From the NCBI RefSeq assembly GCF_041886205.1, contig NZ_CP169029.1: 64,000 nucleotides of DNA; one strand, given 5' to 3'. Shown here in pieces: positions 1,323-51,088 of this stretch (its first letter is position 1; the number at the start of each line of letters is the position of its first letter). A program made the translations under genes and the position numbers. The notes below the pieces were generated by a model. The model searched no databases and was not told the DNA's origin. It worked only from the letters and a program-made list of their open reading frames with translations. The stretch is from Escherichia coli. Lineage in GTDB: Bacteria; Pseudomonadota; Gammaproteobacteria; Enterobacterales; Enterobacteriaceae.

Positions 1323-1394
1323 CCAGGAAAAAATCTTAGGCATCCCGGATTTTCTCTCATCCCCTTTCACTTTCATTTTCATATAGTCAGCAAC

Positions 1395-2711
1395 ATGGAG
1401 ACAACCATGCACGCGCGTTCAGCGAGAGAAATTAATCAATGCTACCGGACATTACGTCCGCGATTGCTGATGTGCATGATTATTGGCTACGCCGCATTTT
1501 ATCTGACGCGAAAAAGCGTGAATTACGTCCTTCCGGCGCTGCAAACCGACCTCGGACTGGATAAAGGCGACATTGGCCTGCTGGGTTCGCTGTTTTATCT
1601 CAGCTACGGATTGTCGAAATTTACCGCCGGACTGTGGCATGACAGCCACGGACAACGCGGTTTTATGGGCGTCGGCTTGTTCACCACCGGATTATTGAAC
1701 GTGGTGTTTGCCTTTGGCGAATCACTTACGCTTTTGCTTGTGGTCTGGACACTGAACGGATTTTTTCAGGGCTGGGGATGGCCACCGTGTGCTCGCTTGC
1801 TGACCCACTGGTACTCACGCAATGAGCGCGGTTTCTGGTGGGGCTGCTGGAATATGTCGATCAACATTGGCGGAGCGATTATTCCGCTAATTAGTGCCTT
1901 TGCCGCCCACTGGTGGGGCTGGCAGGCCGCGATGCTGACACCGGGGATAATCAGCATGGCATTAGGGATCTGGTTAACGCTACAACTCAAAGGCACGCCC
2001 CAGGAAGAGGGATTACCGACAGTTGGTCACTGGCGTCACGATCCGCTGGAGTTACGTCAGGAACAACAAAGTCCGCCGATGGGGCTGTGGCAAATGTTGC
2101 GCACCACCATGCTGCAAAATCCGCTGATCTGGCTACTGGGCGTCTCTTATGTACTGGTTTATGTGATCCGGATTGCGCTTAACGACTGGGGCAATATCTG
2201 GCTGACGGAAAGCCACGGCGTCAACCTGCTCAGCGCCAACGCCACGGTAATGCTGTTTGAAGTGGGCGGCTTACTCGGCGCGTTATTTGCCGGATGGGGA
2301 TCGGATTTGCTGTTTAGCGGGCAACGAGCGCCAATGATTTTGCTGTTCACGCTGGGGTTGATGGTGTCAGTCGCTGCACTGTGGCTGGCACCGGTTCATC
2401 ACTACGCTCTGCTGGCAGTGTGCTTTTTTACCGTAGGCTTTTTCGTCTTTGGTCCACAAATGCTGATTGGACTTGCGGCGGTGGAGTGTGGGCACAAAGC
2501 TGCGGCGGGTTCAATCACCGGATTTCTCGGCCTGTTCGCTTACCTTGGCGCGGCGCTGGCAGGCTGGCCACTGTCGCTGGTCATCGAACGCTACGGCTGG
2601 TCGGGAATGTTCAGTTTACTCTCGGTCGCCGCAGTACTTATGGGTTTACTGCTGATGCCGTTACTGATGGCGGGCATCACCACCACTCACGCTCGAAGGA
2701 TAAAACAATGA
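1395..2711 (+). CDS. UhpC-like MFS sugar-phosphate sensor/transporter (organophosphate:Pi antiporter family)
   Basis: 438 aa multi-helix membrane protein with UhpC/UhpT/GlpT-like N-terminus; 72 bp downstream of the kinase gene. Confidence 0.8.
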   Translation: METTMHARSAREINQCYRTLRPRLLMCMIIGYAAFYLTRKSVNYVLPALQTDLGLDKGDIGLLGSLFYLSYGLSKFTAGLWHDSHGQRGFMGVGLFTTGLLNVVFAFGESLTLLLVVWTLNGFFQGWGWPPCARLLTHWYSRNERGFWWGCWNMSINIGGAIIPLISAFAAHWWGWQAAMLTPGIISMALGIWLTLQLKGTPQEEGLPTVGHWRHDPLELRQEQQSPPMGLWQMLRTTMLQNPLIWLLGVSYVLVYVIRIALNDWGNIWLTESHGVNLLSANATVMLFEVGGLLGALFAGWGSDLLFSGQRAPMILLFTLGLMVSVAALWLAPVHHYALLAVCFFTVGFFVFGPQMLIGLAAVECGHKAAAGSITGFLGLFAYLGAALAGWPLSLVIERYGWSGMFSLLSVAAVLMGLLLMPLLMAGITTTHARRIKQ

Positions 2712-3739
2712 AAATGACCTTTACCTCTACTCTGATTGCTTCTGCCGTTGCGCTGGCGACTTTAACGGGTGCCGCGCAGGCGAAAGGCCGGCTGGTGGTC
2801 TATTGCAGCGCCACCAATGAAATGTGTGAAGCTGAAACCAAAGCGTTTGGCGAGAAATATGATGTGAAAACTTCATTTATCCGCAACGGTTCCGGAAGCA
2901 CCCTGGCAAAAGTCGATGCTGAAAAGAAAAACCCCCAGGCTGACGTCTGGTATGGCGGCACTTTAGACCCGCAATCGCAGGCCGGCGAGATGGGCCTGCT
3001 ACAGGCGTATAAATCCCCTAACCTTGAGCAGATCATGGAGAAATTCCGCGATCCGGCAAAAGTGAAAGGGAATCTGTCCTCTGCCGTATATGTGGGGATC
3101 CTCGGTTTTGGCGTAAACACCGATCGTCTGAAAGAGAAAGACCTGCCGGTGCCGAAGTGCTGGAAAGATCTCACCAAACCGGAATATAAAGGCGAAATTC
3201 AAATTGCCGATCCGCAAAGTTCCGGTACTGCCTACACCGCGCTGGCTACTTTTGCGCAGCTGTGGGGGGAAGATCAGGCCTTTGATTATCTAAAACAACT
3301 GAACGCCAACGTCTCCCAGTATACCAAATCAGGCATAGCCCCGGCACGTAACGCCGCTCGCGGCGAAACGGCGATTGGTATTGGCTTCCTGCATGACTAC
3401 TCGCTGGAAAAAGAACAGGGTGCGCCGCTGGAGTTGATTTCCCCTTGTGAAGGTACGGGCTATGAAATTGGCGGCGTCAGCATTCTGAAAGGCGCGCGCA
3501 ACCTCGACAATGCCAAACTGTTTGTGGACTGGGTATTATCAAAAGAAGCTCAGGAACTGGCGTGGAAGAAAGGGAAGTCTTATCAGATCCTGACCAATAC
3601 CACCGCCGAAACGTCGCCAAATTCGCTGAAGCTCGACGACCTGAAATTAATCAACTACGACATGGATAAATACGGTTCCACGGATGTTCGTAAGGCATTG
3701 ATTAATAAATGGGTTAGCGAAGTGAAGATGGGTAAGTAA
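2708..3739 (+). CDS. afuA: AfuA/FbpA-family periplasmic substrate-binding protein (sugar-phosphate or ferric type)
   Basis: Start MKMTFTSTLIASAVALATLTGAAQA is a signal peptide; ATG overlaps the uhpC-like stop (ATGA). The long ORF 2381-3739 is an upstream extension in the same frame. Confidence 0.8.
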   Translation: MKMTFTSTLIASAVALATLTGAAQAKGRLVVYCSATNEMCEAETKAFGEKYDVKTSFIRNGSGSTLAKVDAEKKNPQADVWYGGTLDPQSQAGEMGLLQAYKSPNLEQIMEKFRDPAKVKGNLSSAVYVGILGFGVNTDRLKEKDLPVPKCWKDLTKPEYKGEIQIADPQSSGTAYTALATFAQLWGEDQAFDYLKQLNANVSQYTKSGIAPARNAARGETAIGIGFLHDYSLEKEQGAPLELISPCEGTGYEIGGVSILKGARNLDNAKLFVDWVLSKEAQELAWKKGKSYQILTNTTAETSPNSLKLDDLKLINYDMDKYGSTDVRKALINKWVSEVKMGK

Positions 3740-3807
3740 ACCCGCATTAGGCGCATTTGCCGGGTGCAGCACAAATGCCTGCCCCGGCCAACCATACCGG
3801 AACTGCT

Positions 3808-5886
3808 ATGTCACAGACACTTGCACTCCATCCCGTGAAAAAGCGGGATGCGATTTTCCTTTGGGTTTTGCTGGGCTGGCTGGCATTTATCCTGTTGCCG
3901 AGCTGGAGTCTCGATTATGGCCTGCTGGAATCCACGAGTGATGAGATCCTCGAGGCTTATGGCTGGTCGCATTTTAATATCAGCTGGCTGTGGTATTTGT
4001 TACCGAGTCTGTTGCTGGTTCGCCCGTTTCGTGAGGCCACACGTGAACAGCGTAGTCGTCATTATTTTGATGCCGGCTGGGCATTGCTCTGTATGGCGTT
4101 TATCGTCATCAGCGCCACCGTGGCTGGACGCGGTTTAGGCTACGCCGCCATCGTGCTGTTTGTTGAATTAGGCGCGATTATGACGCTGGCCTTAACCCGC
4201 CTCGAATGGCTGGGCGGCGACCGCTTCGTGATCGGCTCGCTGATTGCGATTGTGGCGCTGATTGGCATTTTTATCGTCTGGCCGAGCATCGCCATTTTTA
4301 TCCCGATGTTCACCAACGACGCGGGAGAGTTCGCCCCGCTGGCGTTTATGAACGTGCTCTCGCAGGCACATATTGTGCAGGTGATCGTCAACTCTATCGT
4401 CTTGTCGATAGCGGTGGGTATTGGCTGTACCTTCTTCGGTCTGGTACTGGCGATTTATACCACGCGCATCGCCAAACGCAGCGCCATTATTGGCCGCATC
4501 TTTTCCATTCTGCCCATCGTTACACCACCGTTTGTGGTCGGCTTAGGCGTGACACTCATGATGGGGCGCTCCGGCTATATCACGGAGTTTATGGTGGAGT
4601 GGTTTGGGCTGACCAACACCAACTGGCTGTATGGCTTTACCGGGATCTGGCTGGCGCAGGTTCTGGCATTCACGCCAATGGCTTTTATGATCCTCGACGG
4701 GGCCATTAAAACCATTCATCCCTCGCTGGAAGAGGCCTCCTACACCCTGCGCGCCAGCCGCTGGCAAACCTTTAACGGCGTGTTTGTGCCGTTGCTAAAG
4801 CCCGCGCTCGCCAATGCCTTTTTAATCGTCGTGGTACAGTCACTGGCTGATTTCAGTAACCCGCTGGTGCTTGGCGGCAACTTCGACGTACTGGCGACGC
4901 AAATTTACTTCTACATTACCGGCTCGCAGCTGGATTATCAGGCCGCCAGCACGCTTGGTGCTTTCCTGCTGCTGTTCTCGCTGCTGGTGTTCTGCGTCCA
5001 GTATATGTGGATTGGTAAACGCTCTTACGTCACGGTTTCCGGCAAATCCTACCGTGGCGACGTCCAGCCACTACCGGTCACCCTGGTGTGGAGCGTGGTC
5101 GCCATACTTGCGGTATGGATTGCCTTTAACGCCCTGCTCTACGGCAGCATTTTCTACGGCAGCTTCACGGTGAACTGGGGCGTTGACTACACCCTGACGC
5201 TGGATAACTTTATCAAGTTATTTGGTCAGGGGATGAGCGACGGCGCGTGGCCTTCACTGTTGGATACCCTGCTCTACGCCGGGATTGCAGCCCCCATTAC
5301 CGCTATCTTTGGCCTGCTCATCGCCTGGGTGGTGGTGCGTCAACAATTCAAAGGCAAAAAGACCATCGAGTTCACCACCATGCTGTGCTTTGCCGTACCG
5401 GGTACGGTGGCGGGCGTCTCGTATATTCTCGCCTTTAACAGCGCTCCGGTTTATCTCACCGGAACGGCGGCAATTGTGATTATCTCGATGGTGATGCGTA
5501 ACGTTCCGGTGGGCATTCGTGCCGGGATTGCAGGTCTGGGGCAGATCGACAAATCGCTGGATGAAGCCTCACTCAGCCTGCGTGCGGGTTCCCTGCGAAC
5601 CATAACCCACATTTTACTGCCGCTGCTGCGCCCGGCCATTCTCTCGGCCCTGATCTACAGCTTTGTGCGGGCCATCACGACGGTCAGCGCCATCGTCTTT
5701 CTCGTCACGCCGGACACCCGCGTGGCAACAGCCTACATTCTTAACCGCGTTGAAGACGGCGAATATGGCGTAGCTATCGCCTATGGTTCGATTCTGATCG
5801 TGGTGATGCTGGCGATTATTTTCCTCTTTGACTGGCTGATCGGAGAAGCACGTATCTCCCGTTCTAAAGCCAAAAACCAGGCGTAA
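3808..5886 (+). CDS. afuB: AfuB/FbpB-family ABC transporter permease (fused two-domain)
   Basis: About 690 aa polytopic membrane protein; start chosen at MSQTLAL with GGAA upstream; ORF also open from 3757. Confidence 0.75.
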
Positions 5887-5897
5887 TGGAGCGCACT

Positions 5898-6944
5898 ATG
5901 AGTCAGAAAAATTTTGTGGAACTGCGCAACGTCACTAAACGATTCGGCAGTAATACGGTTATCGACAATATCAATCTCACCATTCCACAAGGGCAAATGG
6001 TGACGCTGCTCGGCCCTTCCGGCTGTGGCAAAACCACCATTCTGCGTCTGGTTGCCGGGCTGGAAAAACCGAGCGAAGGGCAAATTTTTATTGATGGCGA
6101 AGATGTCACGCATCGTTCCATTCAACAGCGCGATATCTGCATGGTGTTTCAGTCATACGCTCTGTTCCCGCATATGTCGCTGGGTGAAAACGTTGGCTAC
6201 GGGCTGAAGATGCTTGGCGTGTCGCGTAGCGAAGTGAAACAGCGGGTGAAGGAGGCGCTGGCAATGGTGGATCTGGAAGGCTTCGAGGACCGCTATGTCG
6301 ATCAGATTTCCGGTGGTCAGCAACAGCGTGTGGCGCTGGCCCGCGCGTTGATCCTCAAACCGAAGGTACTGCTGTTTGATGAGCCGTTAAGTAACCTCGA
6401 TGCCAACCTGCGCCGCAGTATGCGCGATAAGATCCGCGAGCTGCAAAAGCAGTTTAATATCACGTCGCTCTACGTCACTCACGATCAAAGTGAAGCTTTC
6501 GCGGTGTCCGACACCGTACTGGTGATGAATAAAGGTCACATCATGCAGATTGGTTCACCGCAAGATCTCTATCGTCAGCCCGCCTCCCGCTTTATGGCAA
6601 GTTTTATGGGCGACGCCAACCTGTTCCCGGCGAACTTTAGCGAAGAGGATGTCGATATCTACGGTTATCGCCTGCCGCGCGCGGCGCATTTCCCGGCGCA
6701 AGGTAGCGGCACCGTCGGCGTTCGCCCGGAAGCCATCACCTTAAGCAATCACGGCGAAGAGAGTCAGCGTTGTGTTATTCGCCATGTCGCCTACATGGGG
6801 CCGCAGTACGAAGTGACCGTAGAGTGGCATGGACAGGAGATTTTATTACAAGTAAACGCCACCCGTTTACAGCCCGATATTGGTGAGCACTATTACCTCG
6901 AAATCCATCCTTACGGGATGTTTGTTTTAGCGGATGCGGCATAA
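5898..6944 (+). CDS. afuC: AfuC/FbpC ABC transporter ATP-binding protein
   Basis: Walker [10 protein letters not shown], signature [15 protein letters not shown], Walker B LLFDEP; 348 aa from MSQKNF; an in-frame ATG at 5886 overlaps the afuB stop. Confidence 0.9.
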
Positions 6945-6957
6945 AAATAGCACATAA

Positions 6958-41013: not shown

Positions 41014-41829
41014 CTAAAGAGTGTAGCGGATTTTAACGTGCTTATTTACAGGATAATATCTGTCACCTAATTCCTGCACTCTATTAGATATCCATTCATT
41101 TAATCGCGCATCATCTCTGTATGTTTTTACGTCCAGAACAGAGAGCAATAACATCACCAGTGATTCAGGAAAAACAGGGTAGATATTTTTTAAGTGTAAT
41201 AATAATCCATGCGCAAGCGCCTGCTTAATGGGCGCGTCTGTCTCCGGAATAGACGACATTTCGCGAAGCCATTTTTCCACATGCATACACTCTTTCCCTT
41301 TAGGGAAAATTTTCAGCAAAGGCATATGGTGTTCAAGAAGAATACATTTGCAATCTGTTCGCACTGAATCGATAAACTGCACTAATTTCTTAAGCCCGGT
41401 AAAGCGTCCAGCCTGCACGTTTGCTTTAATATCAAGAAACGCATCATCCTGGTCATATACCCAAACTGTCCCTTTTTGATTTTCAAGTATGTGAAAAACA
41501 AACTTAACCGGGTGATCAGGGTAATCCATCCAGTCATAAAATCCAGGGAAATCATTAAACTGCACATTTATGGTGAGTGCGTTATCGTCTGACCACTCAC
41601 AGTCTCGTACGGCAGCCATGAGATGAATGAGTTTGTCGTCATCGACTAAATCATCACGACAATCATAAGGATAATCATAATATTGTTTAATCAAAACCTT
41701 GAATATATCGACACAGGAAACCAGGGAGCTTTTGATATCCTCTGGTAACTGATTGTTTTTAACCGTATTAAGTATGCTTTGTTGCGTATATGGCATCAAA
41801 TTATTGTGCGGAGCTTTTAATGATATCAT
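41014..41829 (-). CDS. yahL: Uncharacterised protein YahL
   Basis: 271 aa; MISLKAPHNNLMPYTQQSILNTVKNNQLPEDIK. Confidence 0.8.
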   Translation of the reverse strand: MISLKAPHNNLMPYTQQSILNTVKNNQLPEDIKSSLVSCVDIFKVLIKQYYDYPYDCRDDLVDDDKLIHLMAAVRDCEWSDDNALTINVQFNDFPGFYDWMDYPDHPVKFVFHILENQKGTVWVYDQDDAFLDIKANVQAGRFTGLKKLVQFIDSVRTDCKCILLEHHMPLLKIFPKGKECMHVEKWLREMSSIPETDAPIKQALAHGLLLHLKNIYPVFPESLVMLLLSVLDVKTYRDDARLNEWISNRVQELGDRYYPVNKHVKIRYTL

Positions 41830-42071
41830 CGCGATCTCTCTTAAATAAAAATAAACGTCGCAGATAATAAAGCTCTGATTAAACCAGGCACTATCAGAAA
41901 TCGCTCATAACTAACGTGTGAAGTATTGTGTACTGGAGGGCGTTAATTTAACAATTTAAATTTACGTTATAGGTTTTACTGCTACTTTGATATTATTTCG
42001 CTCTCCTTAACTAAAAAGTTAAGTGGAGAGCGAAGTTAATATGTTAAACCACAGGGTATTTATTAATTTTT

Positions 42072-43121
42072 TCAGTCTGTTAGTGTGCGATTATCGATAA
42101 CAAAACGATATTTCACATCACCGCGCAGCATTCGCTCATAGGCTTCATTAATTTGATCGGCCCGAATCATCTCTATATCAGCCACGATGCCATGTTCGGC
42201 GCAAAAATCGAGCATCTCCTGAGTTTCTGGAATGCCGCCAATCATAGAACCGGCTATCGCACGGCGTTTCATGATCAGGTTGAAAACTTCCGGCGATTTA
42301 TGCGGTGTCGCAGGCGCACCAACCAGCGTCATGGTGCCATCACGCTTCAGCAAGGTGGTAAAATCGTCGAGATTATGTGGCGCAGCTACTGTATTCAAAA
42401 TGAAATCGAAACTCTTCAGATGAGCCGCCATCTCATCGGCATTGCGTGAGTTAACAACTTCATCGGCCCCCAGGGCTTTTGCCGCTTCGCGTTTTGCCTC
42501 AGAAGTGGTAAATGCCACCACATGTGCCCCCATCGCGTGGGCCAGCTTAATCCCCATATGTCCCAGACCGCCGATGCCGACCACGCCCACTTTTTTACCC
42601 GGCCCGGCCTGCCAGTGACGTAGCGGCGAATACGTGGTGATCCCTGCACACAACAAAGGAGCCACCGCCGCCAGCTGCTCTTGCGGGTGACGAATACGCA
42701 GAACATATCGCTCATGAACGACGATCTGTTGTGAGTAGCCGCCCAGAGTATGGCCCGGTTCGTCCGGCGTCGGCGAGTTATAGGTGCCGGTCATGTGATC
42801 ACAGTAGTTTTCCAACCCGTCTTCACACTCTTCGCAATGTTTACAACTGTCGACAATGCAGCCGACACCGACCAGATCGCCCGGCGCATATTTTTCTACC
42901 TGATCACCAACGGCTACCACACGCCCCACAATTTCATGACCCGGCACGCAGGGGTAAACCGTCCCCGCCCACTCGGAACGGACCTGGTGGAGATCGGAAT
43001 GGCAAACGCCACAGTAAGCGATTTCGATTTTGACATCATTCGGTCCCGGTTCACGCCGGGTGATATCCATCGGTTCAAGTGGTTGTTTAGCGGAATATGC
43101 ACCAACAGCTTTGATCTTCAT
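42072..43121 (-). CDS. yahK: NADPH-dependent aldehyde reductase (Zn-ADH, cinnamyl-alcohol dehydrogenase family)
   Basis: 349 aa; GVCHSDLH and GHEIVGRV zinc motifs, GVVGIGGLGHMG Rossmann. Confidence 0.92.
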   Translation of the reverse strand: MKIKAVGAYSAKQPLEPMDITRREPGPNDVKIEIAYCGVCHSDLHQVRSEWAGTVYPCVPGHEIVGRVVAVGDQVEKYAPGDLVGVGCIVDSCKHCEECEDGLENYCDHMTGTYNSPTPDEPGHTLGGYSQQIVVHERYVLRIRHPQEQLAAVAPLLCAGITTYSPLRHWQAGPGKKVGVVGIGGLGHMGIKLAHAMGAHVVAFTTSEAKREAAKALGADEVVNSRNADEMAAHLKSFDFILNTVAAPHNLDDFTTLLKRDGTMTLVGAPATPHKSPEVFNLIMKRRAIAGSMIGGIPETQEMLDFCAEHGIVADIEMIRADQINEAYERMLRGDVKYRFVIDNRTLTD

Positions 43122-43207
43122 TGTGTTTACTCCTGATTAGCTATGTGTATTTGGCAACGCCTGATATGTCATCGCGGCAAAACGCGTCCATTGAATATAG
43201 CCAATAT

Positions 43208-44164
43208 TTAAACCACCCGATCCAGCCCCAACATGCCGCGAGCCTGAATGAAACAGAGCAGCAACGTTCCCCATAAGGCCATCGTCAGGTAGGGGCTTAT
43301 ACCGAGAATATTGAAGCCGCTTTCAATAATTTGCAGAAGAAACAGCGCCAGCACCATACCAATTATCCGCCCGCTGCCGCCGTCCGGATTAACCCCGCCG
43401 AGTACTGCCGCGAGGATTGACACCAGCAAGTACGATTCGCCATAAGAGGCCTTAGCCGAGTTGAGTTTCGACATCATCAAAAATGCCGCTACCGCACAAA
43501 GCAAGGCGGAAATGACATAAACCCAAATCAGCACCCGACGAGTGTTAATGCCGGAGTAAAGTGTTGCTCGTTCGTTAGACCCAATCAGGTAAATGGCTTT
43601 ACCGAGCGGCGTTTTCTCCAGCAATATCCACAGCCCCAGTGCCACTGCGGCAAACAACCACATCGGTAGCGGAATACCGAACCATTGCGCATGATTCAAC
43701 CACAGCACCCATGAGGGATAATTGGCAATGGCGCTACCACCTGTCACCAGAATATTTATCCCTTTGAGCAACGTCATCATCCCAAGCGTTGCAAGAATTG
43801 GCGACACTCGAATACCAGCAATCAATACGCCGTTACATAAACCGATTATCACCGCCGCGCCAGCGCCCGCCAGTAACGTAGCGACAACCGTAGCAATACC
43901 CGGTGGATACTGAGTCGCCACCCACGCCATCACCAGTGAACAGGCGTTAGCAGTGGCTATAATTGACAAGTTAATGCCACCGCAAAGCATGGTCACCGCC
44001 ATAGCCAACGCCAGAATGCCCAGCACGGGCATTTGCGAAGCGACGGACTGGAAATTACTTATCGACCAGAAAATCTCCGGCATAGTAATGCTGAACGCGG
44101 CAACAGTTAGCACCAGCAGGCCGATCAAGTAAAACTCAACGTTATTACGCCACGATTTTTTCAT
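43208..44164 (-). CDS. Sugar ABC transporter permease (CUT2, RbsC/LsrD-like)
   Basis: Polytopic membrane protein; start at MKKSWRNN overlaps the upstream permease stop by 4 bp; ORF open to 44194. Confidence 0.85.
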   Translation of the reverse strand: MKKSWRNNVEFYLIGLLVLTVAAFSITMPEIFWSISNFQSVASQMPVLGILALAMAVTMLCGGINLSIIATANACSLVMAWVATQYPPGIATVVATLLAGAGAAVIIGLCNGVLIAGIRVSPILATLGMMTLLKGINILVTGGSAIANYPSWVLWLNHAQWFGIPLPMWLFAAVALGLWILLEKTPLGKAIYLIGSNERATLYSGINTRRVLIWVYVISALLCAVAAFLMMSKLNSAKASYGESYLLVSILAAVLGGVNPDGGSGRIIGMVLALFLLQIIESGFNILGISPYLTMALWGTLLLCFIQARGMLGLDRVV

Positions 44165-45132
44165 AGCAGACTCCGGTTCTGATGCTGACTCCACGCCGTG
44201 GCACTAATGCTGGCAACGATGATGATGCCGGTGATCAATGTTTGCCAGTAAGACGAGACTCCCAATAAATTTAGCCCGTTTTGCATCACTGCCAACAACA
44301 CCACGCCGAGCAAAGTACCGGTTAACGTGCCGCGCCCGCCGAGCAAACTAGTGCCGCCAAGCACCACCGCAGCCAGTACTGTCAGCTCATAACCCAGAAG
44401 AGAATCGGGGGCGACAGTCATCACCGTCCACGACTGCACTACACCCGCAGCGCCAGACATCAATCCCATATAGCCATAGACGAAAAGTTGCAGTTTCAGC
44501 ACGCTAAAGCCGATGCGACTGGCTGATTCGCGGTTCCCGCCAAGGGCATAAATTTTGCGCCCTACACTGGTGAAATTCATGATAAACGCTGTTAGCAGCA
44601 CCACCGTAATCATGGCGATCAGCGGCAGACCAAGGCCATAGTCATAGCCATCAGCATCGGTATACTTGAACAACATAACCCCCTGCTCAAACCACGGCGG
44701 AAAGTCGTACAGCCACACACCTTTACTCAACCATAACAGCAGGCCATAGAAAATATTCAGCGTCGAGATAGTGATGATGATAGAAGGCACCCGTAGGCGA
44801 TTAACCAGTAAGGCGTTAATTAAGCCAAGTAAAATGCCGATGCAGCCCGCCAGTGCAAACGCGACAGCGAAGTTGCCACCAATTTTTTGCAGCAACAGCA
44901 CCATGCCGTATTGCGCAATGATGGTCATTGCTGGAAACGAAATATCAATTCCACCGGAAATCAACACCACAAACAAACCACAGGCGAGAATAGTCAACAT
45001 GGCATAGTTATTGGCGAGATCGTACAAATTACCGAATGTCAGAAACTCGTCGCTGCGCCAGGCAAGGCCAACAAACATCACCACAATCAGTAATGCCAGC
45101 CAGAATTCATGGCGTTTTTTCAGTTCAGCCAT
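44161..45132 (-). CDS. Sugar ABC transporter permease (CUT2, RbsC/LsrC-like)
   Basis: 323 aa polytopic membrane protein; MAELKKRHEFWLALLIVVMFVGLAW. Confidence 0.85.
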   Translation of the reverse strand: MAELKKRHEFWLALLIVVMFVGLAWRSDEFLTFGNLYDLANNYAMLTILACGLFVVLISGGIDISFPAMTIIAQYGMVLLLQKIGGNFAVAFALAGCIGILLGLINALLVNRLRVPSIIITISTLNIFYGLLLWLSKGVWLYDFPPWFEQGVMLFKYTDADGYDYGLGLPLIAMITVVLLTAFIMNFTSVGRKIYALGGNRESASRIGFSVLKLQLFVYGYMGLMSGAAGVVQSWTVMTVAPDSLLGYELTVLAAVVLGGTSLLGGRGTLTGTLLGVVLLAVMQNGLNLLGVSSYWQTLITGIIIVASISATAWSQHQNRSLL

Positions 45133-46609
45133 TTACCACCTCCGCAATCCTGGCCTGAGAACTGCTGTCAGGCAGGAAGCTATGGGTGATCTGACCTTTT
45201 TGCATTACCAAAATCCGGTGGCTTTGATACCACGCTTCTTCAATTTCATCGCAGATCATCAATACCGCAATGCCATGAGCCGCCAGATCGCTGATAATGC
45301 CGTATATTCCTGCTTTGTTGGCGATATCAACACCGACTGTCGGGCTATCGAGAATCAACAGTCGTGGCCCAATCGCCAGCCATTTGGCGATCGATACTCG
45401 CTGCGCGTTACCACCAGAAAGCGTATTCACCGGAAGATGAGGATCAGAGACTTTGATGGTCAATGCCTTGATTAGCCTGTCCACCAGGTCACGCACTTTA
45501 GTTTCACTCAGAAAGCCGAAGCGATCTTTTACCTTGTGAAAAACAGTGCTAATGATGTTGTCTTCAATAGATTGCGCCATCACCAAACCGCGCGACATGC
45601 GATCTTCCGAAACATAACCAATACCGTGGCGGATGGCGTCCTGGTTACTATGCAGTGTAACCGGCTGGCCGTTGATGAGGATCTCGCCAGCATCCGGTCG
45701 GGTCATACCAAACAGACTCAGACATAATTCCGTGCGCCCCGCACCAAGCAGGCCAACAATCGATACCACTTCGCCCGCTTCCACCCGCAAGTTAATATTT
45801 AGATATTCCCCATGACGACTTAAATTACGCACCTCCAGCACCGGGGTGCTGGATTTTCCCTGCCACAACTCTCGCACCTGATATTCAAACTCCTGGCCGG
45901 TCATCAGGAAACCGAGTTGTTTTGTGGTCATCTCTGCAGCCGGAAAAGTCCCGACCAGCTCACCATCTTTCAGCACTGAAATACGGTCGGAAACTTCCAT
46001 CACTTCTTCCAGACGATGACTGACGAAGACCACGCAGATCCCGCGTTCACGCAATTGATGCACCACCTGTAATAACCCTTGCACTTCCTGATGGGTCAGC
46101 GAAGCGGTTGGTTCATCCATCACGATCAACCGTGCGTCCTGCGCCAGTGCACGGCAAATTGCCACCAGCTGACAGCGGGCAATTGAAAGCTCAGAAACGA
46201 GCGTATCCAGTGGCAATGTGACGTTAATACTAGTCATTGCCGCCTGCGCCACCTCACGCAGACGACGGCGGTTAACAAACAGACCGTGGTGATAGTGATT
46301 CACGGCGATATTCTCCCAGACACTCAGGTTAGGAAATAAAGAGAGGTCCTGATAAATCACCTGAATCCCCTGCGCCACCGAAGCGGCTGGTGTCAGCTTT
46401 GACCAGTTTTTCCCACCAAGCGTAATTTCCGCTCCCTCATCCGGGCGATAAACACCGGACATAATTTTAATCAACGTCGATTTACCACAGCCGTTTTGTC
46501 CGGCAAGGCAGTGCACTTCACCCGACATAAAGTCGAGAGAAACATCGCGCAGCGCTCGCGTGGCATGAAACGTTTTGTTGATATGACGAAGGGAAAGGAA
46601 GGTTTCCAT
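45125..46609 (-). CDS. Sugar ABC transporter ATP-binding protein, two fused NBDs (RbsA/LsrA-like)
   Basis: Walker A GQNGCGKST and second-domain GLLGAGRTE; signature LSGGNAQRV; start may be at 46624. Confidence 0.9.
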   Translation of the reverse strand: METFLSLRHINKTFHATRALRDVSLDFMSGEVHCLAGQNGCGKSTLIKIMSGVYRPDEGAEITLGGKNWSKLTPAASVAQGIQVIYQDLSLFPNLSVWENIAVNHYHHGLFVNRRRLREVAQAAMTSINVTLPLDTLVSELSIARCQLVAICRALAQDARLIVMDEPTASLTHQEVQGLLQVVHQLRERGICVVFVSHRLEEVMEVSDRISVLKDGELVGTFPAAEMTTKQLGFLMTGQEFEYQVRELWQGKSSTPVLEVRNLSRHGEYLNINLRVEAGEVVSIVGLLGAGRTELCLSLFGMTRPDAGEILINGQPVTLHSNQDAIRHGIGYVSEDRMSRGLVMAQSIEDNIISTVFHKVKDRFGFLSETKVRDLVDRLIKALTIKVSDPHLPVNTLSGGNAQRVSIAKWLAIGPRLLILDSPTVGVDIANKAGIYGIISDLAAHGIAVLMICDEIEEAWYQSHRILVMQKGQITHSFLPDSSSQARIAEVVNG

Positions 46610-46657
46610 AACATCCCCTGGCAATAAGAATCGGGGCTTTCGCCCCGAAGAAATGGA

Positions 46658-47644
46658 TTAATAAAGTGAGTCGATATTGTCTTTGTTGACCAGTAATACC
46701 TTATGGAAACGGATAATTCGCTTATCCATATCTACGTCGGCCTTACCCAGATTCTGCATTTCTAATCCAGGTTTGATCTCTTCACCCTTCAGCAACGTGC
46801 TGGCGACGGCTGCGAGTGCGTAACCTGCAGAGGCCGGATCGTAAGTAATCCCTTCGGTGATATCACCACTTTTAATCAGTGATGCCGCCTGTGAAGGGAT
46901 CATCATGCCATAGACTGCGACTTTATTTTTCGCCCGTTTCTCTTTCACCGCACGTCCCGCGCCAATCGGACCGTTTGAACCAAAGGAGACAACCGCTTTC
47001 AAGTCAGGATAGGTTTTCATCAGGTCCAGTGTGGTACGACGTGAGTCATCCACACTCTCGGCAACCGGCATGCGGCGGGTAACTTCATGCATATCCGGGT
47101 AATGCTCTTTCTGGTATTTCACCAGCAAGTCAGCCCATAAGTTATGCTGCGGCACGGTCAAACTACCCACGTAAATCACATAGCCGCCCTTGCCCCCCAT
47201 GCGTTTCGCCATATGCTCAACATATTCAGCGGCAAATTTTTCGTTATCAATGATTTCGATATCCCAGTTAGCACTTGGCTGACCGGGGGATTCGTTGGTC
47301 AGAACCACAATTCCGGCATCTCGCGCTTTTTTGAATACCGGTTCCAGCACGTTGGCATCGTTTGGCACGATAGTAATTGCATTAACCTTACGGGCGATTA
47401 AATCCTCAATAATTTTAACTTGTTGCGGAGCATCAGTACTTGAAGGCCCCACCTGTGAGGCATTAACACCAAAGGCTTTACCCGCCTCAACCACACCTTC
47501 GCCCATGCGATTAAACCACGGCATACCATCGACTTTAGAAATATTCACCACGATTTTTTCCGCTGCCTGGAGCGGCGCAGAAATTAGCGCAGCGCCTAAT
47601 AACAGCGAAGACACCATATTGATAACAAAACGTTTATTCATCAT
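46658..47644 (-). CDS. Periplasmic sugar-binding protein (type I PBP, LsrB/RbsB-like)
   Basis: 328 aa with signal peptide MMNKRFVINMVSSLLLGAALISAPLQA; C-terminus RIIRFHKVLLVNKDNIDSLY resembles LsrB. Confidence 0.85.
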   Translation of the reverse strand: MMNKRFVINMVSSLLLGAALISAPLQAAEKIVVNISKVDGMPWFNRMGEGVVEAGKAFGVNASQVGPSSTDAPQQVKIIEDLIARKVNAITIVPNDANVLEPVFKKARDAGIVVLTNESPGQPSANWDIEIIDNEKFAAEYVEHMAKRMGGKGGYVIYVGSLTVPQHNLWADLLVKYQKEHYPDMHEVTRRMPVAESVDDSRRTTLDLMKTYPDLKAVVSFGSNGPIGAGRAVKEKRAKNKVAVYGMMIPSQAASLIKSGDITEGITYDPASAGYALAAVASTLLKGEEIKPGLEMQNLGKADVDMDKRIIRFHKVLLVNKDNIDSLY

Positions 47645-47877
47645 TTCAGCCTCATTGCAGGGTAGTCAGGAAGTGTTCGCCCAAATTAGCGCGCTGGAGA
47701 GAATAAGAATTTTCGAATATTTTTATGCAGAATAAACAGCTCTATTTCAGGCAGCTATTAAAAATATGGTTATAAATATGGACAAAACGGGCAGCAATAA
47801 TAAGTGTGACATTCATCACGTAAAAAACAGCAAAATAAACAAAATTAGCGATATTTTATGTTTGTGAGCTTATTTCG

Positions 47878-47899
47878 TGTAGATAAATAGTTATCTACA
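47878..47899. promoter_or_regulatory. Perfect palindrome TGTAGATAA-ATAG-TTATCTACA
   Basis: 9 bp perfect arms at the 3' end of the ASCH gene, about 235 bp upstream of the ABC operon start. Confidence 0.4.
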
Positions 47900-48305
47900 C
47901 AACGTCAATAAGGGCATATTCTTCAAAGATAACGTCCATTTCTGGTGAATAGCTTCCTTCTGCCTGGAAAAAACGACGGTGTTCATTACGCCAATATTCA
48001 AGACTGAGGTCACCTTCACCTTCCTTACGGGCAAGCTCCGCGGTGACATCAGAAAAGCGCAGTAAATGCAGGCCAATCACTCTGATAACACATACAGGCT
48101 CACCACAGCTATTTTCTACAATCTTATACTCACCAATCATCGGAAATGCGTTGTCTTCAATACATCCCGCCAGCGAACCACAGGAAGCTGTTTTAACACC
48201 AGTCGCAATCAACGTTGCGAGGTGATCGGCCAACGCGGCTGAATCGCCAAAAGTACAAAAGGAAGCATGGGGATATTTTTGTGAGAATTTTTCTTTTATG
48301 GTCAT
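47895..48305 (-). CDS. ASCH-domain (PUA-like) protein, possible small amidohydrolase
   Basis: 136 aa from MTIKEKF; ASFCTFGD and GVKTASCGSL resemble ASCH-domain proteins such as YqfB; ORF open to 48335. Confidence 0.55.
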   Translation of the reverse strand: MTIKEKFSQKYPHASFCTFGDSAALADHLATLIATGVKTASCGSLAGCIEDNAFPMIGEYKIVENSCGEPVCVIRVIGLHLLRFSDVTAELARKEGEGDLSLEYWRNEHRRFFQAEGSYSPEMDVIFEEYALIDVV

Positions 48306-48603
48306 GGAAATATTTTTGCGATTACGGAAAAACAAATCACATCTTAATTACTGTTGGTAACCATCAGCAAGAGTATCATTGGTTTTTCGATACTGAATCT
48401 TTTTTATCCGAAGCAGGTCACATTTATGGCCTGATAAATACCTTTGTTAAAACTCACTTTTGTGTATTTCTCTCAAATAATCCCCTGGAAATTATGCCGG
48501 GAGATTATAAAGTTCAGGATCATTCATTAGCAAACCATTCCCGCCCCACTCCCTGGGGCTTAAATCTCTTACCGTTCACCGTTGCAGACATATCAAATGC
48601 GCA

Positions 48604-49986
48604 TCAACCTGCCACACTCCCCCACACCAGTTGCCCTTTATGGAACGTTGCGGTTCTCGGCGAGATACGCGCCACCGCCTCGGCGGAACAGGAGGCGTCC
48701 ACCAGCACAAAGCTGGCGTCATCCTGCGCTTTTGGCCATACACGCTCGCCTTTTTCATTCAGCGGCAATACATCGCCAGTGGCTAAAAACAGCGAACGGG
48801 AGAGGTTCTGTTCGTTAGGACGAATATAGAGCTGCGCGTAGAGATTGGCTTTTTCCAGCATGCCGCCCAGACCATAAGGCGACCAGTGGTCGATAACGCT
48901 GTCAGTGCCAGTCATCACTTTTACGCCTTTGTCGTGCAGCTGTTTGAGCGGCATATGCAGCGTGCCAATCGGCACCGTCGAGGCGATAGAAATTTGCTGC
49001 GCCGCCATCCGGTGCGCCAGCGCATCGACCTGTTGTTCGTTGAGCGTTGCCAGCGCAAAGGCGTGGCTGATGGTCAGCTTACCTTTCAGTTGTGGCGTTT
49101 TCTCCACTGTTTCAACCATATAATTGATGGCCGCCACGCCCGCCGGAGTGGTTTCGTGCAGGTGAATATCGACGCCTTTGTCGTAGTCCAGCGCAATCTG
49201 AAACATGGTGTCGAGGGATTTTTCCATCGCGCCATCGACACTGGTCGGGTCCAGACCGCCGACGTAATGCGCGCCCGCCTGCATTGCTTCACGCATTAAG
49301 GGTTCCGATTTCGACAGCAGCAAACCGTGCTGCGGGAAGGCGACGATTTCACACTCGAAGCCCGCCTGACGCCGCGCCAGCACCGCCTGCAAATTTTGCA
49401 GATTTTTCAGGCCGGAAACCGGTTCGATATTGCAGTGGCTGCGGGCAATGGTGGTGCCTTTCGACTGCAATAGTTCGATCAGTTTTTCCGCCCGCTCCTG
49501 CGTGTACGGTTGTAACTCCGGCAGCATTTTCTGCTCGAGTTTGATCATGTCCTGGATGGTGGTGCCTGCCGGGCGATTGAGCGAGCGCCACGGCCCGCCG
49601 TAGAAGGTTTTGTCGAGATGAATATGCATGTCGCGAGTGGTGGGCAGCATCAGCTTACCGCCAGCATCATAGTGCGGTAGCGTGGCGTCCGGATGCTGCT
49701 TGTTCTCGCGCAGAGCAACAATTTTGCCGCTCTGAATCTCTACGGTCTGGTGCGCCGTGCGGGTCTGTACCGCCACACCGTTTTCGTAATCAAATCCGGT
49801 TTCCAGCAGCACGTTGTCGAGATAGTAGTGCGGGTCAGTGATTTTCATGGTGTTATTTGCCTCGCAGTGGGTTGTGCCAGAGACTGCCGCATGGGCGAGC
49901 GGCACAGAGGTACCAAACAGCGCGGCGGCAGTGACCATCTTACCGCTCTGGCTCAGAAACTCACGGCGGCTATTGTTTTCTTTCAT
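48604..49986 (-). CDS. yahJ: Tat-exported metal-dependent amidohydrolase/deaminase
   Basis: 460 aa; twin-arginine signal NSRREFLSQSGKMVTAAALFGTSVPLAHA; HIHLD metal-binding motif. Confidence 0.9.
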   Translation of the reverse strand: MKENNSRREFLSQSGKMVTAAALFGTSVPLAHAAVSGTTHCEANNTMKITDPHYYLDNVLLETGFDYENGVAVQTRTAHQTVEIQSGKIVALRENKQHPDATLPHYDAGGKLMLPTTRDMHIHLDKTFYGGPWRSLNRPAGTTIQDMIKLEQKMLPELQPYTQERAEKLIELLQSKGTTIARSHCNIEPVSGLKNLQNLQAVLARRQAGFECEIVAFPQHGLLLSKSEPLMREAMQAGAHYVGGLDPTSVDGAMEKSLDTMFQIALDYDKGVDIHLHETTPAGVAAINYMVETVEKTPQLKGKLTISHAFALATLNEQQVDALAHRMAAQQISIASTVPIGTLHMPLKQLHDKGVKVMTGTDSVIDHWSPYGLGGMLEKANLYAQLYIRPNEQNLSRSLFLATGDVLPLNEKGERVWPKAQDDASFVLVDASCSAEAVARISPRTATFHKGQLVWGSVAG

Positions 49987-49995
49987 CTTACGTCC

Positions 49996-50946
49996 TTACG
50001 TTTTAATAATATGAGTGCCCGTTTCGCCACGCAGCGCCGCTGGCAGGCATTCCGGCGTGGTGATAATCACTTCTTTACCGCCCTGTTCCAGGAACGTCAG
50101 GCTGGCGATGATTTTTGGCAACATGCTGCCGGGCGGGAAATGTCCTTCCTGCATATAGCGAGTCATGGTGGCAATATCCACCCGATCCAGCGCCTGCTGC
50201 TCGAGTTTGCCAAAGTGAATACACACTTTTTCGACGCCGGTGGTGATCACCAGAATGTCGGCGTGAATTTCACGGGCCAGCAGCGCGGTAGAGAGATCTT
50301 TGTCGATAACCGCGTCCACGCTTTGGTAATCCCCCGCTTCAGTACGCACTACCGGAATTCCGCCGCCGCCCGCGCCAATTACGACAAAACCTTGTTGGAT
50401 CAGCGCCTTAATGGCAGGTGCCTCGACAATACGTTTCGGTTCCGGCGAGGCGACCACGCGGCGATAGCCCCGCCCGGCATCTTCAACAAAACACCAGTCA
50501 GGGTTTGCCTTTTGTAGTTCGTCACGCTGACTTTCACTAAAGAATGCGCCGATGGGCTTGGTGGGATGAGCAAAACCCGGATCGTTTATATCCACTTCCA
50601 CCTGAGTCACCACGGTGACGGCTTTTTTCTCGCCGTGACGCGCCAGTCGGTTGTTCAGCGCCTGTTGGATCAGATAGCCAATGCCGCCTTGCGTATCCGC
50701 TACACAGTTCGCCAGCGGCGTTAATGGCAGCCCTTCGCGCTCGTGGGCAATCTCCGCACGGCGTAAATCCAGCCCGACCTGCGGCCCGTTGCCGTGGGTC
50801 AGCACAATGTCGTAATCGGAAGCCAGCATTTCCAGCAGCGTATCGGCGACGGCTTTCACCGCCTCCGCCTGATGCTCAATCGACTGGCTGGCGTTATTTT
50901 TGATAATGCTGTTGCCACCAATGGCAACGACCACAAGCTCTTTCAT
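49996..50946 (-). CDS. yahI: Carbamate kinase-like protein
   Basis: 316 aa; MKELVVVAIGGNSI amino-acid-kinase N-terminus. Confidence 0.9.
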   Translation of the reverse strand: MKELVVVAIGGNSIIKNNASQSIEHQAEAVKAVADTLLEMLASDYDIVLTHGNGPQVGLDLRRAEIAHEREGLPLTPLANCVADTQGGIGYLIQQALNNRLARHGEKKAVTVVTQVEVDINDPGFAHPTKPIGAFFSESQRDELQKANPDWCFVEDAGRGYRRVVASPEPKRIVEAPAIKALIQQGFVVIGAGGGGIPVVRTEAGDYQSVDAVIDKDLSTALLAREIHADILVITTGVEKVCIHFGKLEQQALDRVDIATMTRYMQEGHFPPGSMLPKIIASLTFLEQGGKEVIITTPECLPAALRGETGTHIIKT

Positions 50947-50994
50947 GTTGTTATGTCCGCTACAGAGGGTGATGAGGTTATGACCAACGCCAGA

Positions 50995-51078
50995 CTGCCT
51001 GATGCGCTACGCTTATCAGGCCTACAATTCTCGGGCCATTCGTAGGCCGGATAAGGCGTTCACGCCGCATCCGGCATA
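50995..51078. repeat. REP cluster between yahI and yahG
   Basis: TGCCTGATGCGCTACGCTTATCAGGCCTACA ... GTAGGCCGGATAAGGCGTTCACGCCGCATCCGGCA. Confidence 0.85.
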
Positions 51079-51088
51079 AACATGTAAG

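Follow-up and report, generated by a model that had tools for sequence, protein, structure and literature searches.

The transporter block between yahK and yahJ of Escherichia coli is the Aau importer, probably an old, AraC/CRP-wired Escherichia locus that K-12 lost by deletion

The 64-kb stretch of Escherichia coli DNA analyzed here (the window) carries a five-gene transporter block between yahK and yahJ, which raises the questions of what is imported, whether the neighboring yah genes are served by it, and whether the block was inserted or lost. We identify the block as the AauABCD importer of E. coli (Z0415–Z0419, EHEC O-island 17), accompanied by an unrelated ASCH orphan gene. The importer has already been characterized: its ligand, regulator, kinase, in vivo phenotype, and crystal structure are published (Cottam et al., Nat Commun 2024, PMC11127945; 2025, PMC12307932). 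Our additions, which are a deletion scar, a CRP–AraC promoter layout, and the orphan status of the ASCH gene, are incremental. We are highly confident in the overall reading of an Aau importer with AraC/CRP wiring, encoded by an old Escherichia locus that K-12 has lost and that has no functional link to the yah genes.

The five open reading frames were found on the minus strand at the positions given in the original prediction (Table 1), and aauABCD, yahJ, and yahK are adjacent and co-oriented. The yahK–yahJ spacer measures 5,482 bp in the window, close to the predicted 5.5 kb, and 376 bp in the K-12-type strain D72. As the short junction occurs in 2,803 of 5,426 complete E. coli genomes, including MG1655, and the full block in 2,205, this difference from K-12 is real. 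NCBIfam and Pfam agree with the description of the block as an ASCH gene next to a complete sugar ABC importer of the CUT2 type, and the RefSeq coordinates give overlaps of 4 bp (aauC/aauD) and 8 bp (aauB/aauC), as had been noted. Likewise, the block contains no kinase or regulator gene among its open reading frames, profile matches, and RefSeq genes, with no kinase reading frame in 43122–48603; araC and araBAD lie outside the window. Positions 42000–50000 are 100% identical to E. coli 6EVA and are covered completely by O157 genomes at 98.8% identity with the same gene order, including the succession of binding protein, ATPase, permease, and permease beside yahK. The stem-loop that separates aauA from aauB probably acts as a partial terminator or stabilizes the mRNA, which would give an excess of binding protein.

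Table 1. Features of the aau locus in window coordinates.
Feature	Position	Strand	Remarks
yahK	42072–43121		flank; RefSeq annotation
aauD, permease	43208–44164	-	318 aa; RefSeq permease; last 72 nt (43208–43279) remain in K-12-type scar
Proposed deletion 1, missing from K-12-type genomes	43280–47799	.	about 4.52 kb; about 8 nt filler instead
aauC, permease	44161–45132	-	323 aa; RefSeq permease
aauB, fused two-domain ABC ATPase, intact	45125–46609	-	494 aa; RefSeq sugar ABC ATPase
G+C-rich stem-loop between aauA and aauB	46631–46648	-	
aauA, periplasmic substrate-binding protein	46658–47644	-	328 aa from MMNK; RefSeq start 47641
Predicted AraC I2, TAACCATATTTTTAATA	47756–47772	-	I1–I2 as a whole: 47756–47793
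Predicted AraC I1, TGCCCGTTTTGTCCATA	47777–47793	-	4-nt spacer to I2
Predicted CRP site, CGTGATGAATGTCACA	47805–47820	-	upstream of the AraC half-sites
Perfect 9-bp hairpin over ASCH stop codon	47877–47900	-	kept in K-12-type scars
ASCH-domain gene	47895–48305	-	136 aa; YhfF-like; PF04266
Proposed deletion 2, missing from K-12-type genomes	47945–48541	.	597 bp, ASCH 5' part and upstream region; 21 nt instead
yahJ	48604–49986		flank; RefSeq annotation

The assignment to the CUT2 class (TC 3.A.1.2) is based on a fused tandem ATPase, two BPD_transp_2-type permeases, and a Peripla_BP_4-type binding protein, Pfam families that were read on one E. coli copy of the block, and on full-length alignments to RbsA/AraG/XylG, RbsC/AraH, and RhaS/LsrB models. 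Each protein stays below every NCBIfam equivalog cut-off; AauB, for example, aligns over its full length to the AraG, YtfR, XylG, and RbsA models with 370–420 bits, all below the cut-offs. The canonical AraFGH system was rejected (AraG 423 versus a cut-off of 689, AraH 158 versus 378, and no AraF model matching the binding protein), as was an Rbl D-ribulose locus, since no linked FGGY D-ribulokinase is present in 43122–48603. RefSeq calls the binding protein an "autoinducer 2 ABC transporter substrate-binding protein", and LsrB structures are among its distant PDB matches (E about 1e-24). However, an Lsr-type autoinducer-2 importer is hardly credible here, as the scores are far too low (LsrB 112 versus 384, LsrA 385 versus 586, LsrD 145 versus 500, LsrC 116 versus 388), as no lsrK, lsrR, lsrF, or lsrG is annotated by RefSeq near the block, and as the AauA crystal structure contains D-ribulose (PMC12307932). 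The binding protein is also far below the RhaS cut-off. The RefSeq name is thus misleading for AauA.

The identity with Aau is clear. The window binding protein matches AauA of PDB entry 9I1M over its full length in 326 of 328 residues (99.4%, 713 bits), and all six D-ribulose contact residues listed for AauA (K37, W43, E118, H167, E196, and S223; PMC12307932) are present. The two exchanges relative to EHEC AauA, V31I and V201D, are conservative and away from the pocket. Locus, gene order, and chromosomal site are those of the EHEC system, whereas the host differs, as the window strain matches the human fecal isolate 6EVA, which carries no EHEC label. A further difference is that aauB is intact in the window, while that of TUV93-0, a derivative of EDL933, is interrupted by a premature stop at position 259 (PMC11127945). 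Isothermal titration calorimetry, differential scanning fluorimetry, and the D-ribulose-containing crystal structure gave a Kd of about 2 µM for D-ribulose and about 0.6 mM for L-arabinose (PMC12307932). The view that the ligand could not be read from sequence has been overtaken by these data, and the outcome that the original prediction had named as speaking against its proposal, binding of a common sugar unrelated to the neighboring enzymes, is what was found.

The mechanism outlined here is taken from the literature on the 99.4%-identical protein, as micromolar D-ribulose binding and AraB-dependent use were reported for the ZAP193 protein (PMC12307932); for the window strain, the evidence is the sequence itself. 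L-arabinose-bound AraC would turn on the aau promoter, probably by acting at the I1–I2 repeat with a CRP site 11 nt upstream. AauA, whose affinity for alpha-D-ribulose is micromolar and for L-arabinose about 300-fold lower, would then capture the sugar in the periplasm and hand it to the AauC/AauD permease, with uptake driven by the two-domain ATPase AauB. Imported D-ribulose would be phosphorylated by the L-ribulokinase AraB and enter the pentose phosphate pathway. That expression needs AraC plus L-arabinose, the only known inducer, was shown in the first study (PMC11127945), and AraC dependence, an AraB kinase assay, and growth data are found in both (PMC12307932; PMC11127945). The block lacks its own kinase and regulator because AraC regulates its expression and AraB phosphorylates D-ribulose.

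According to the 2024 interpretation, Aau is mainly an accessory L-arabinose scavenger, and D-ribulose binding would be incidental. This would fit the sole known inducer, the partial rescue of an araE mutant on L-arabinose by aau overexpression (PMC11127945, PMC12307932), and the conserved AraC/CRP promoter and Pasteurellaceae araC adjacency that tie the clade to the arabinose regulon. We nevertheless consider it unlikely, as AauA binds L-arabinose with a Kd of about 600 µM versus 2 µM for D-ribulose, and as deletion of aau caused no growth defect on L-arabinose but abolished the benefit from D-ribulose (PMC12307932).

Related transporters put this arrangement into perspective. The Rbl system of Citrobacter rodentium (RblABCD-RblK) is, like Aau, a CUT2 transporter for D-ribulose, and the binding proteins of its group (loci L061–L082) are about 58–64% identical to AauA. 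In contrast to aau, Rbl-type loci include an FGGY pentulose kinase and a sugar-phosphate isomerase (L063) and lack the composite CRP/AraC motif described below; Rbl does not respond to L-arabinose (PMC12307932). Closer to Aau is an operon of Pasteurellaceae (Actinobacillus, Mannheimia, and Rodentibacter), for which we found no experimental characterization in the literature. Its binding protein is 73–77% identical, and the four-gene order and the CRP–I1–I2 promoter are the same. Unlike in E. coli, araC is located immediately upstream (in Actinobacillus an araC equivalog with 372 bits versus a cut-off of 208) and an FGGY kinase immediately downstream, and the Pasteurellaceae cluster is therefore self-contained.

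As at araBAD and araFGH, the predicted aau promoter consists of a CRP site followed by two direct 17-bp AraC half-sites 4 bp apart, and dependence on L-arabinose has been shown experimentally for all of them. The pattern GTGA-N6-TCACA is kept in aauA upstream regions of 10 taxa. The composite motif TCAC-N20-27-TCCAT-N5-TARC has one match in the window versus 0.01 expected, and it is found in 26 aau-type operon loci, each time in the equivalent position ahead of the gene for the binding protein, a count that leaves out three E. coli block copies (L001, L003, and L085) and the true araBAD CRP–I1–I2 region (L090), which it also matches. I1 has an invariant TCCATA B-box, and I2 begins with TAGC or TAAC. 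The gap between the CRP site and I1 is constantly 11 nt across the tabulated aau-type promoters, compared with 13 nt in araBAD. On its own, the simple 17-mer pattern of the AraC half-site was not enriched in the window (33 matches versus 40 expected), and no −35/−10 pair was called upstream of aauA at the position expected from araBAD. In E. coli aau, the A-box of I1 (TGCC), which is degenerate in comparison to araBAD/araFGH, and the B-box of I2 (TTAATA) are weak matches, and the published Aau papers contain no mapped AraC site at aau (PMC11127945, PMC12307932), which is why we only infer direct AraC binding at these predicted half-sites. As the araBAD-like geometry is kept from E. coli and Klebsiella to Pasteurellaceae, the AraC wiring appears to have arrived with the operon. 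This conservation across two orders argues that AraC control is ancestral to the aau-type transporter clade rather than a secondary "hijack".

It had also been proposed that the transporter imports a substrate of the YahJ amidohydrolase or of yahEFGI (AllFGH-like, carbamate kinase), such as a nitrogen heterocycle or modified nucleoside. The block indeed adjoins yahJ and yahK in the same orientation, and the ASCH protein, whose family includes N4-acylcytidine amidohydrolases, is encoded between a cytosine-deaminase-like amidohydrolase and the transporter. However, the ligand is a pentose or ketopentose according to crystal structure and calorimetry (PMC12307932), induction is AraC-dependent with L-arabinose as the only effector (PMC11127945), catabolism depends on AraB, and the aau promoter has its own predicted CRP/AraC sites. 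Moreover, yah or ASCH neighbors occur at none of 78 other-species loci with the orthologous operon, an Escherichia locus (L029) keeps aau without yahB–yahJ, and the 2,803 short-junction E. coli genomes, over half, keep yah without aau. The proposed supply of a yah substrate is thus unsupported and, in our judgment, very improbable, and the position of aau beside the yah genes appears to have no functional meaning.

The ASCH gene is a separate unit outside aau. Its product contains the ASCH domain PF04266 (E = 6e-22, residues 27–133), with 1T62 and 3S9X as PDB relatives. None of the aau loci outside Escherichia contains the gene, Escherichia sp. E2593 and E. coli HH45 have it while lacking aau, and the surroundings of its homologs in Yersinia, Pseudenterobacter, and Kosakonia are unrelated. 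The fold family is shared with the YqfB-type amidohydrolases (N4-acetylcytidine deacetylases), which use a Lys/Thr/Glu catalytic set with an Arg in a G-K-T-x-x-x-R octapeptide (bioRxiv 10.64898/2026.02.27.708502). The G-x-K-T motif of the window protein (TGVKTASC) resembles this GKT(R) octapeptide, but the Arg is missing or not conserved, and phmmer gave no link to YqfB, which is too distant. The protein belongs to the YhfF/1T62 subgroup, for which we found no assayed function in the literature.

The original prediction regarded the block as inserted relative to K-12, and the literature calls Aau "horizontally acquired" and part of a "pathogenicity island". A recent genomic island (OI-17) in a K-12-like spacer would agree with the patchy occurrence of the block among E. 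coli genomes (2,205 of 5,426, enriched in phylogroups B1, E, and D) and, among the best 80 loci, with the scattered closest non-Escherichia orthologs (Klebsiella, Franconibacter, and Mangrovibacter, 90–92% amino acid identity) and the lack of any other named Escherichia species. However, the supposedly empty site holds true remnants of both aau ends and of ASCH. The K-12-type junction still contains the final 24 codons of aauD, the aau CRP site in decayed form, and the 3' end of ASCH; the peptide that it encodes, LALWGTLLLCFIQVRGMLGLDRVV*, agrees with the C-terminus of AauD from E. coli, Klebsiella, Franconibacter, and Mangrovibacter. The block is not accompanied by an integrase, a tRNA, an IS element, or flanking direct repeats, and the G+C content of aauABCD (49–53%) is similar to that of the flanks. 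Escherichia sp. E2593 (about 89–95% nucleotide identity) shares the aau scar with an intact ASCH gene, whereas L029 has the full block beside yahK and is 89–93% identical across aauABCD and yahK, with aau as diverged as yahK. The case for an ancestral block draws on these two non-E. coli Escherichia genomes, which were assigned to species by nucleotide divergence only. As one divergent lineage shares the scar and another holds the complete block at this site, the direction implied by "insertion" is wrong, and a recent island is quite improbable. The short K-12 spacer is a scarred remnant of aauD, the aau promoter, and ASCH. The aau locus thus appears to be old in Escherichia, and K-12 would have lost it in two deletions, of which the one in aau came before the one in ASCH.

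For those working on Aau, these results are of modest value: they provide a concrete candidate AraC/CRP site, conserved across two bacterial orders, and they present aau-negative strains as likely deletion derivatives. If these strains, including K-12, arose by deletion, the reading of the aau–LEE association changes, as it would reflect retention against loss and not acquisition. Beyond this, we lean toward a broader scenario in which Aau is an old Escherichia operon that arrived CRP/AraC-wired and is not a recent EHEC island. A cryptic Escherichia lineage and the K-12-type E. coli strains, which make up about 52% of the complete genomes, would share one ancient 4.5-kb deletion, and the "empty" allele would have been produced when ASCH was deleted later. 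As the first deletion is shared by both, full and deleted alleles would have coexisted across species-level divergence, which may mean that scavenging of D-ribulose/L-arabinose has been under long-term balancing or niche-dependent selection.

The stretch between yahK and yahJ holds five minus-strand ORFs, whose annotation was taken from E. coli strain 6EVA, a 100% match to the window over 42000-50000. The 4-bp and 8-bp gene overlaps noted in the original prediction are real. By NCBIfam models, all four proteins of the transporter fall with the CUT2 sugar importers (Rbs, Ara, Xyl, Als, Lsr, Ytf), with all scores far below the equivalog cut-off. The yahK-yahJ spacer measures 5,482 bp in the window in comparison to 376 bp in strain D72, which has the short K-12-type junction. 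A survey of 5,426 complete E. coli genomes found the whole block in 2,205 and the short junction in 2,803, including MG1655. The ORFs, the RefSeq annotation, the spacer lengths, and these counts thus all bear out a five-ORF block that K-12 lacks. An Rfam E-value scan of 41800-49000 gave no match. The aauA-aauB spacer contains a stem-loop that is rich in G+C (TCGGGGC GAAA GCCCCGA) and leads into a T-rich tail, an arrangement typical for ABC operons that produce excess binding protein.

Features of the yahK-yahJ region in window coordinates, and the pieces of the window retained in the D72 junction
Feature	Coordinates	Strand	Source or remark
yahK	42072-43121		flank
Five-ORF block	43208-48335	-	
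Permease	43208-44164	-	RefSeq annotation of 6EVA
Permease	44161-45132	-	RefSeq annotation of 6EVA
Sugar ABC ATPase	45125-46609	-	RefSeq annotation of 6EVA
Stem-loop with T-rich tail	46631-46648	-	between aauA and aauB
'Autoinducer 2 ABC transporter substrate-binding protein' (aauA)	46658-47641	-	RefSeq annotation of 6EVA
Predicted AraC site	47756-47793		
Match to composite CRP/I1/I2 pattern	47769-47809	-	
Predicted CRP site	47805-47820		
ASCH domain protein	47895-48305	-	RefSeq annotation of 6EVA
yahJ	48604-49986		flank
D72 junction piece 1	43100-43279		includes last 72 nt of aauD
D72 junction piece 2	47873-47944		hairpin at ASCH stop codon and last 50 nt of ASCH
D72 junction piece 3	48542-48625		yahJ 3' flank

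The block is an already characterised system that had been correctly read from sequence, and its description here is a rediscovery. The binding protein is identical in 326 of 328 positions to PDB 9I1M. This entry is the AauA protein of EHEC O-island 17, which serves the 'accessory L-arabinose uptake' system Aau (Z0415-Z0419) as its binding protein (PMC12307932; PMC11127945). O157 genomes covered the 8-kb query in full at 98.8% identity with unchanged gene content. L-arabinose is the sole inducer of aau transcription, which is lost in an araC mutant (PMC11127945). AauA binds D-ribulose with a Kd of 1.98 µM and L-arabinose with a Kd of 598 µM, and in the crystal alpha-D-ribulose is held between W43 and H167, with K37, E118, E196, and S223 as hydrogen-bond partners (PMC12307932). 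All six contact residues are kept in the window protein (6/6), and its two substitutions, V31I and V201D, lie outside of them. The RefSeq name 'autoinducer 2' is therefore misleading, as the crystal ligand is D-ribulose and the LsrB model reached only 112 bits where its cut-off is 384. D-ribulose is beneficial to growth only in the presence of L-arabinose, the effect depends on both aau and araBAD, and purified AraB phosphorylates D-ribulose (PMC12307932). In the published work on Aau, an aau mutant was outcompeted about 100-fold in streptomycin-treated mice. The block indeed contains neither a kinase nor a regulator, as had been stated, because AraB and AraC are used instead. The window aauB encodes a full-length ATPase, whereas the gene has a premature stop in the EDL933 derivative TUV93-0 (PMC11127945).

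The published Aau papers name no AraC or CRP sites. An alignment of the regions upstream of aauA from E. coli, Franconibacter, Klebsiella, Mangrovibacter, Symbiopectobacterium, and Aeromonas revealed two conserved islands, GTGA-N6-TCACA and TTT(A/G)TCCATAT, with TAGC or TAAC coming 4 nt after the second. The araBAD promoter of MG1655 has the same order of elements, namely a CRP site, I1 (TAGCATTTTTATCCATA), AGAT, and I2 (TAGCGGATCCTACCTGA). A search of the window with a single half-site (TAGC-N7-TCCATA, up to 2 mismatches) was uninformative, with 33 matches versus 40 expected and thus no enrichment, and was replaced by the composite CRP/I1/I2 pattern TCAC-N20-27-TCCAT-N5-TARC. This pattern matched only once in the 64-kb window, with 0.01 matches expected, and also matched the araBAD promoter locus and three E. 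coli copies of the block (L001, L003, L085). A further 26 loci with an aau-type operon had one match each, located 120-360 nt upstream of the gene for the binding protein; they belong to Klebsiella, Franconibacter, Aeromonas, Symbiopectobacterium, Yersinia, Actinobacillus, Mannheimia, and Rodentibacter, together with the divergent Escherichia locus L029. There were no matches at loci resembling Rbl, another D-ribulose importer type (58-64% identity). The geometry is constant: 11 nt separate the CRP core from I1 (10 nt in Pasteurellaceae), and 4 nt separate I1 from I2. I1 agrees with araI1 in 10-15 of 17 positions, although in E. coli the half-sites match only weakly beyond the TCCATA box. Where araBAD would place the -35/-10 pair, a sigma-70 scan called none that was convincing. 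The transcription start is predicted some 25-35 nt past I2, at around 47720-47735. From this architecture, we predict an AraC site and a CRP site upstream of aauA, and we conclude that control by AraC and CRP would be ancestral to this transporter clade. The Actinobacillus operon is directly preceded by an araC equivalog and directly followed by an FGGY kinase gene. In Actinobacillus indolicus (L042, 7868-14941), these genes make up a compact araC-aauABCD-FGGY kinase cluster, whose AraC I1 is near-perfect (TAGCAGAATTTTCCATA), and such Pasteurellaceae clusters are possibly the self-contained ancestral form of the system. At the other end of the operon, a terminator scan found no terminator 3' of aauD and nothing terminator-like in the 86-nt aauD-yahK spacer (43122-43207). 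This spacer may contain a yahK promoter, and AraC-driven transcription may run on into yahK.

The original prediction described the block as inserted, but the remnants in the short junction reverse this direction and point to the block as the older state relative to K-12. The D72 junction is composed of three pieces of the window (see the table), and between pieces 1 and 2 is a decayed copy of the ASCH-aauA spacer that reaches through the CRP site. The aauD remnant, a partial pseudogene in the RefSeq annotation of D72, translates to LALWGTLLLCFIQVRGMLGLDRVV up to its stop codon and matches the AauD C-termini not only of E. coli but also of Klebsiella, Franconibacter, and Mangrovibacter, in which yahK is not a neighbour. 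Because the junction keeps remnants of aauD, the CRP region, and ASCH, the K-12 state would be the product of two deletions, 43280-47799 (aau) and 47945-48541 (ASCH). The block was found to lack an integrase, IS elements, tRNAs, and flanking repeats, and the G+C content of aauABCD is like that of the flanks. Aau has been called 'horizontally acquired' (PMC11127945), which may hold for a distant Escherichia ancestor. In K-12-type scars, the aauD-yahK spacer and the aauD remnant are 98% conserved, in comparison to 93% for the ASCH-side remnant. A repeat search gave no flanking direct repeats. An imperfect 25-nt inverted repeat (19/25) joins 43255-43279, ending exactly at the aau breakpoint 43279, with 48633-48657 in the yahJ 3' end; its contact with the breakpoint is probably due to chance. 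A second indel of the yah cluster concerns the yahI-yahG spacer, which has 142 nt in the window (50947-51088) versus 421 nt in D72 with an annotated 'yahH' (L002 6842-7262).

Other Escherichia genomes bear on the order of these events. Escherichia sp. E2593, which has 89-95% nucleotide identity to the window over the region, shows the order yahJ, intact ASCH, the same aau scar, and yahK, and derived changes of its scar, for example the decay of the CRP region, are also present in the K-12-type scar. Because an intact ASCH gene here accompanies a scar with shared derived changes, the aau deletion would have preceded the ASCH deletion and would be common across a species-level divergence. L029, labelled E. 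coli SCPM-O-B-8794, has the full aau block beside yahK at the same site, with 91-93% nucleotide identity in aauA-D and 89% in yahK, and this even divergence argues for vertical descent. A third locus, L085, was considered as an outgroup on account of its 75% identical ASCH, but turned out to be an E. coli assembly full of frameshifts with 97% nucleotide identity over 9 kb. Of the 5,426 E. coli genomes, only HH45 (L089 2846-3160) combines an intact ASCH gene with deleted aau. Its breakpoints at about 43285 and 47790 are 5 and 9 nt apart from the K-12-type ones (43280 and 47799), its junction carries a G-rich 13-nt filler, and yahL is missing. Because its upstream flank resembles the full allele, the aau deletion of HH45 is apparently recent and independent of the K-12-type one. 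Microhomology does not account for the junctions; filler DNA is present at both the K-12-type and the HH45 junctions.

It had also been proposed that the transporter feeds a YahJ/yahEFGI pathway. We scanned one genome per GTDB species for AauA relatives and inspected the best 80 loci, only two of which are from Escherichia: L029 and L003. The latter, 4.7 kb long and assigned to a 'Bacteroidales' MAG, encodes proteins with 99-100% identity to E. coli aauABCD and is almost certainly an E. coli contig that was misbinned. The four-gene operon was kept at every one of these loci with enough sequence, and its neighbours vary by genus: Klebsiella has genes for a tryptophan-tRNA ligase and an efflux adaptor, Mangrovibacter has a GntR regulator gene together with a PTS gene, and Yersinia has cobD. 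At no non-Escherichia locus of the best 80 was yahJ, yahK, yahI, yahG, yahF, or ASCH found within 9 kb. In L029, aau adjoins yahK, yahB-yahJ are gone, and what is left of ASCH directly borders a PdeL-like EAL gene, with lutB/ykgF-like genes ahead of the latter. Conversely, the yah cluster occurs without aau in over half of the E. coli genomes. The proposal thus finds no comparative support, and it is contradicted by the known ligand, on whose identity it had been made to depend: the protein binds the pentulose D-ribulose as well as L-arabinose.

The ASCH gene (G+C about 41%, lower) encodes a 136-aa single-domain protein (Pfam) of the YhfF type, the nearest solved relatives of which, 1T62 and 3S9X, have no assigned function. 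It is not part of the aau system, because it is absent from the non-Escherichia aau loci of the best 80, is present without aau in E2593 and HH45, and has homologues (55-65% identical) in Yersinia, Pseudenterobacter, and Kosakonia with unrelated neighbourhoods. These neighbourhoods also led us to reject a functional link of ASCH to either yahJ or aau. YqfB-type ASCH proteins deacetylate N4-acetylcytidine (bioRxiv 10.64898/2026.02.27.708502). The window protein keeps a G-x-K-T motif but lacks the arginine, and our best guess at its function, made with low confidence, is that of a small amidohydrolase with an N-acylated nucleobase or RNA as substrate.

Two further segments of the window were noted. 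One, beside frmRAB at about 1-6950, is an accessory transport block that encodes a MASE1-domain protein, a uhpC-like MFS receptor, and an ABC importer of the afu/fbp type, made up of a binding protein, a fused permease, and an fbpC ATPase; we take this block to resemble the island that carries the sugar-phosphate importer AfuABC in EHEC and Citrobacter. The other, at about 58603-62586 and flanked by betT and pdeL, contains the autotransporter adhesin gene ehaA and is presumably an O-island in EHEC.

For Aau itself, the conserved CRP-AraC architecture, the deletion scars common across species, and the independence of ASCH are incremental points that are of value to specialists on this system.
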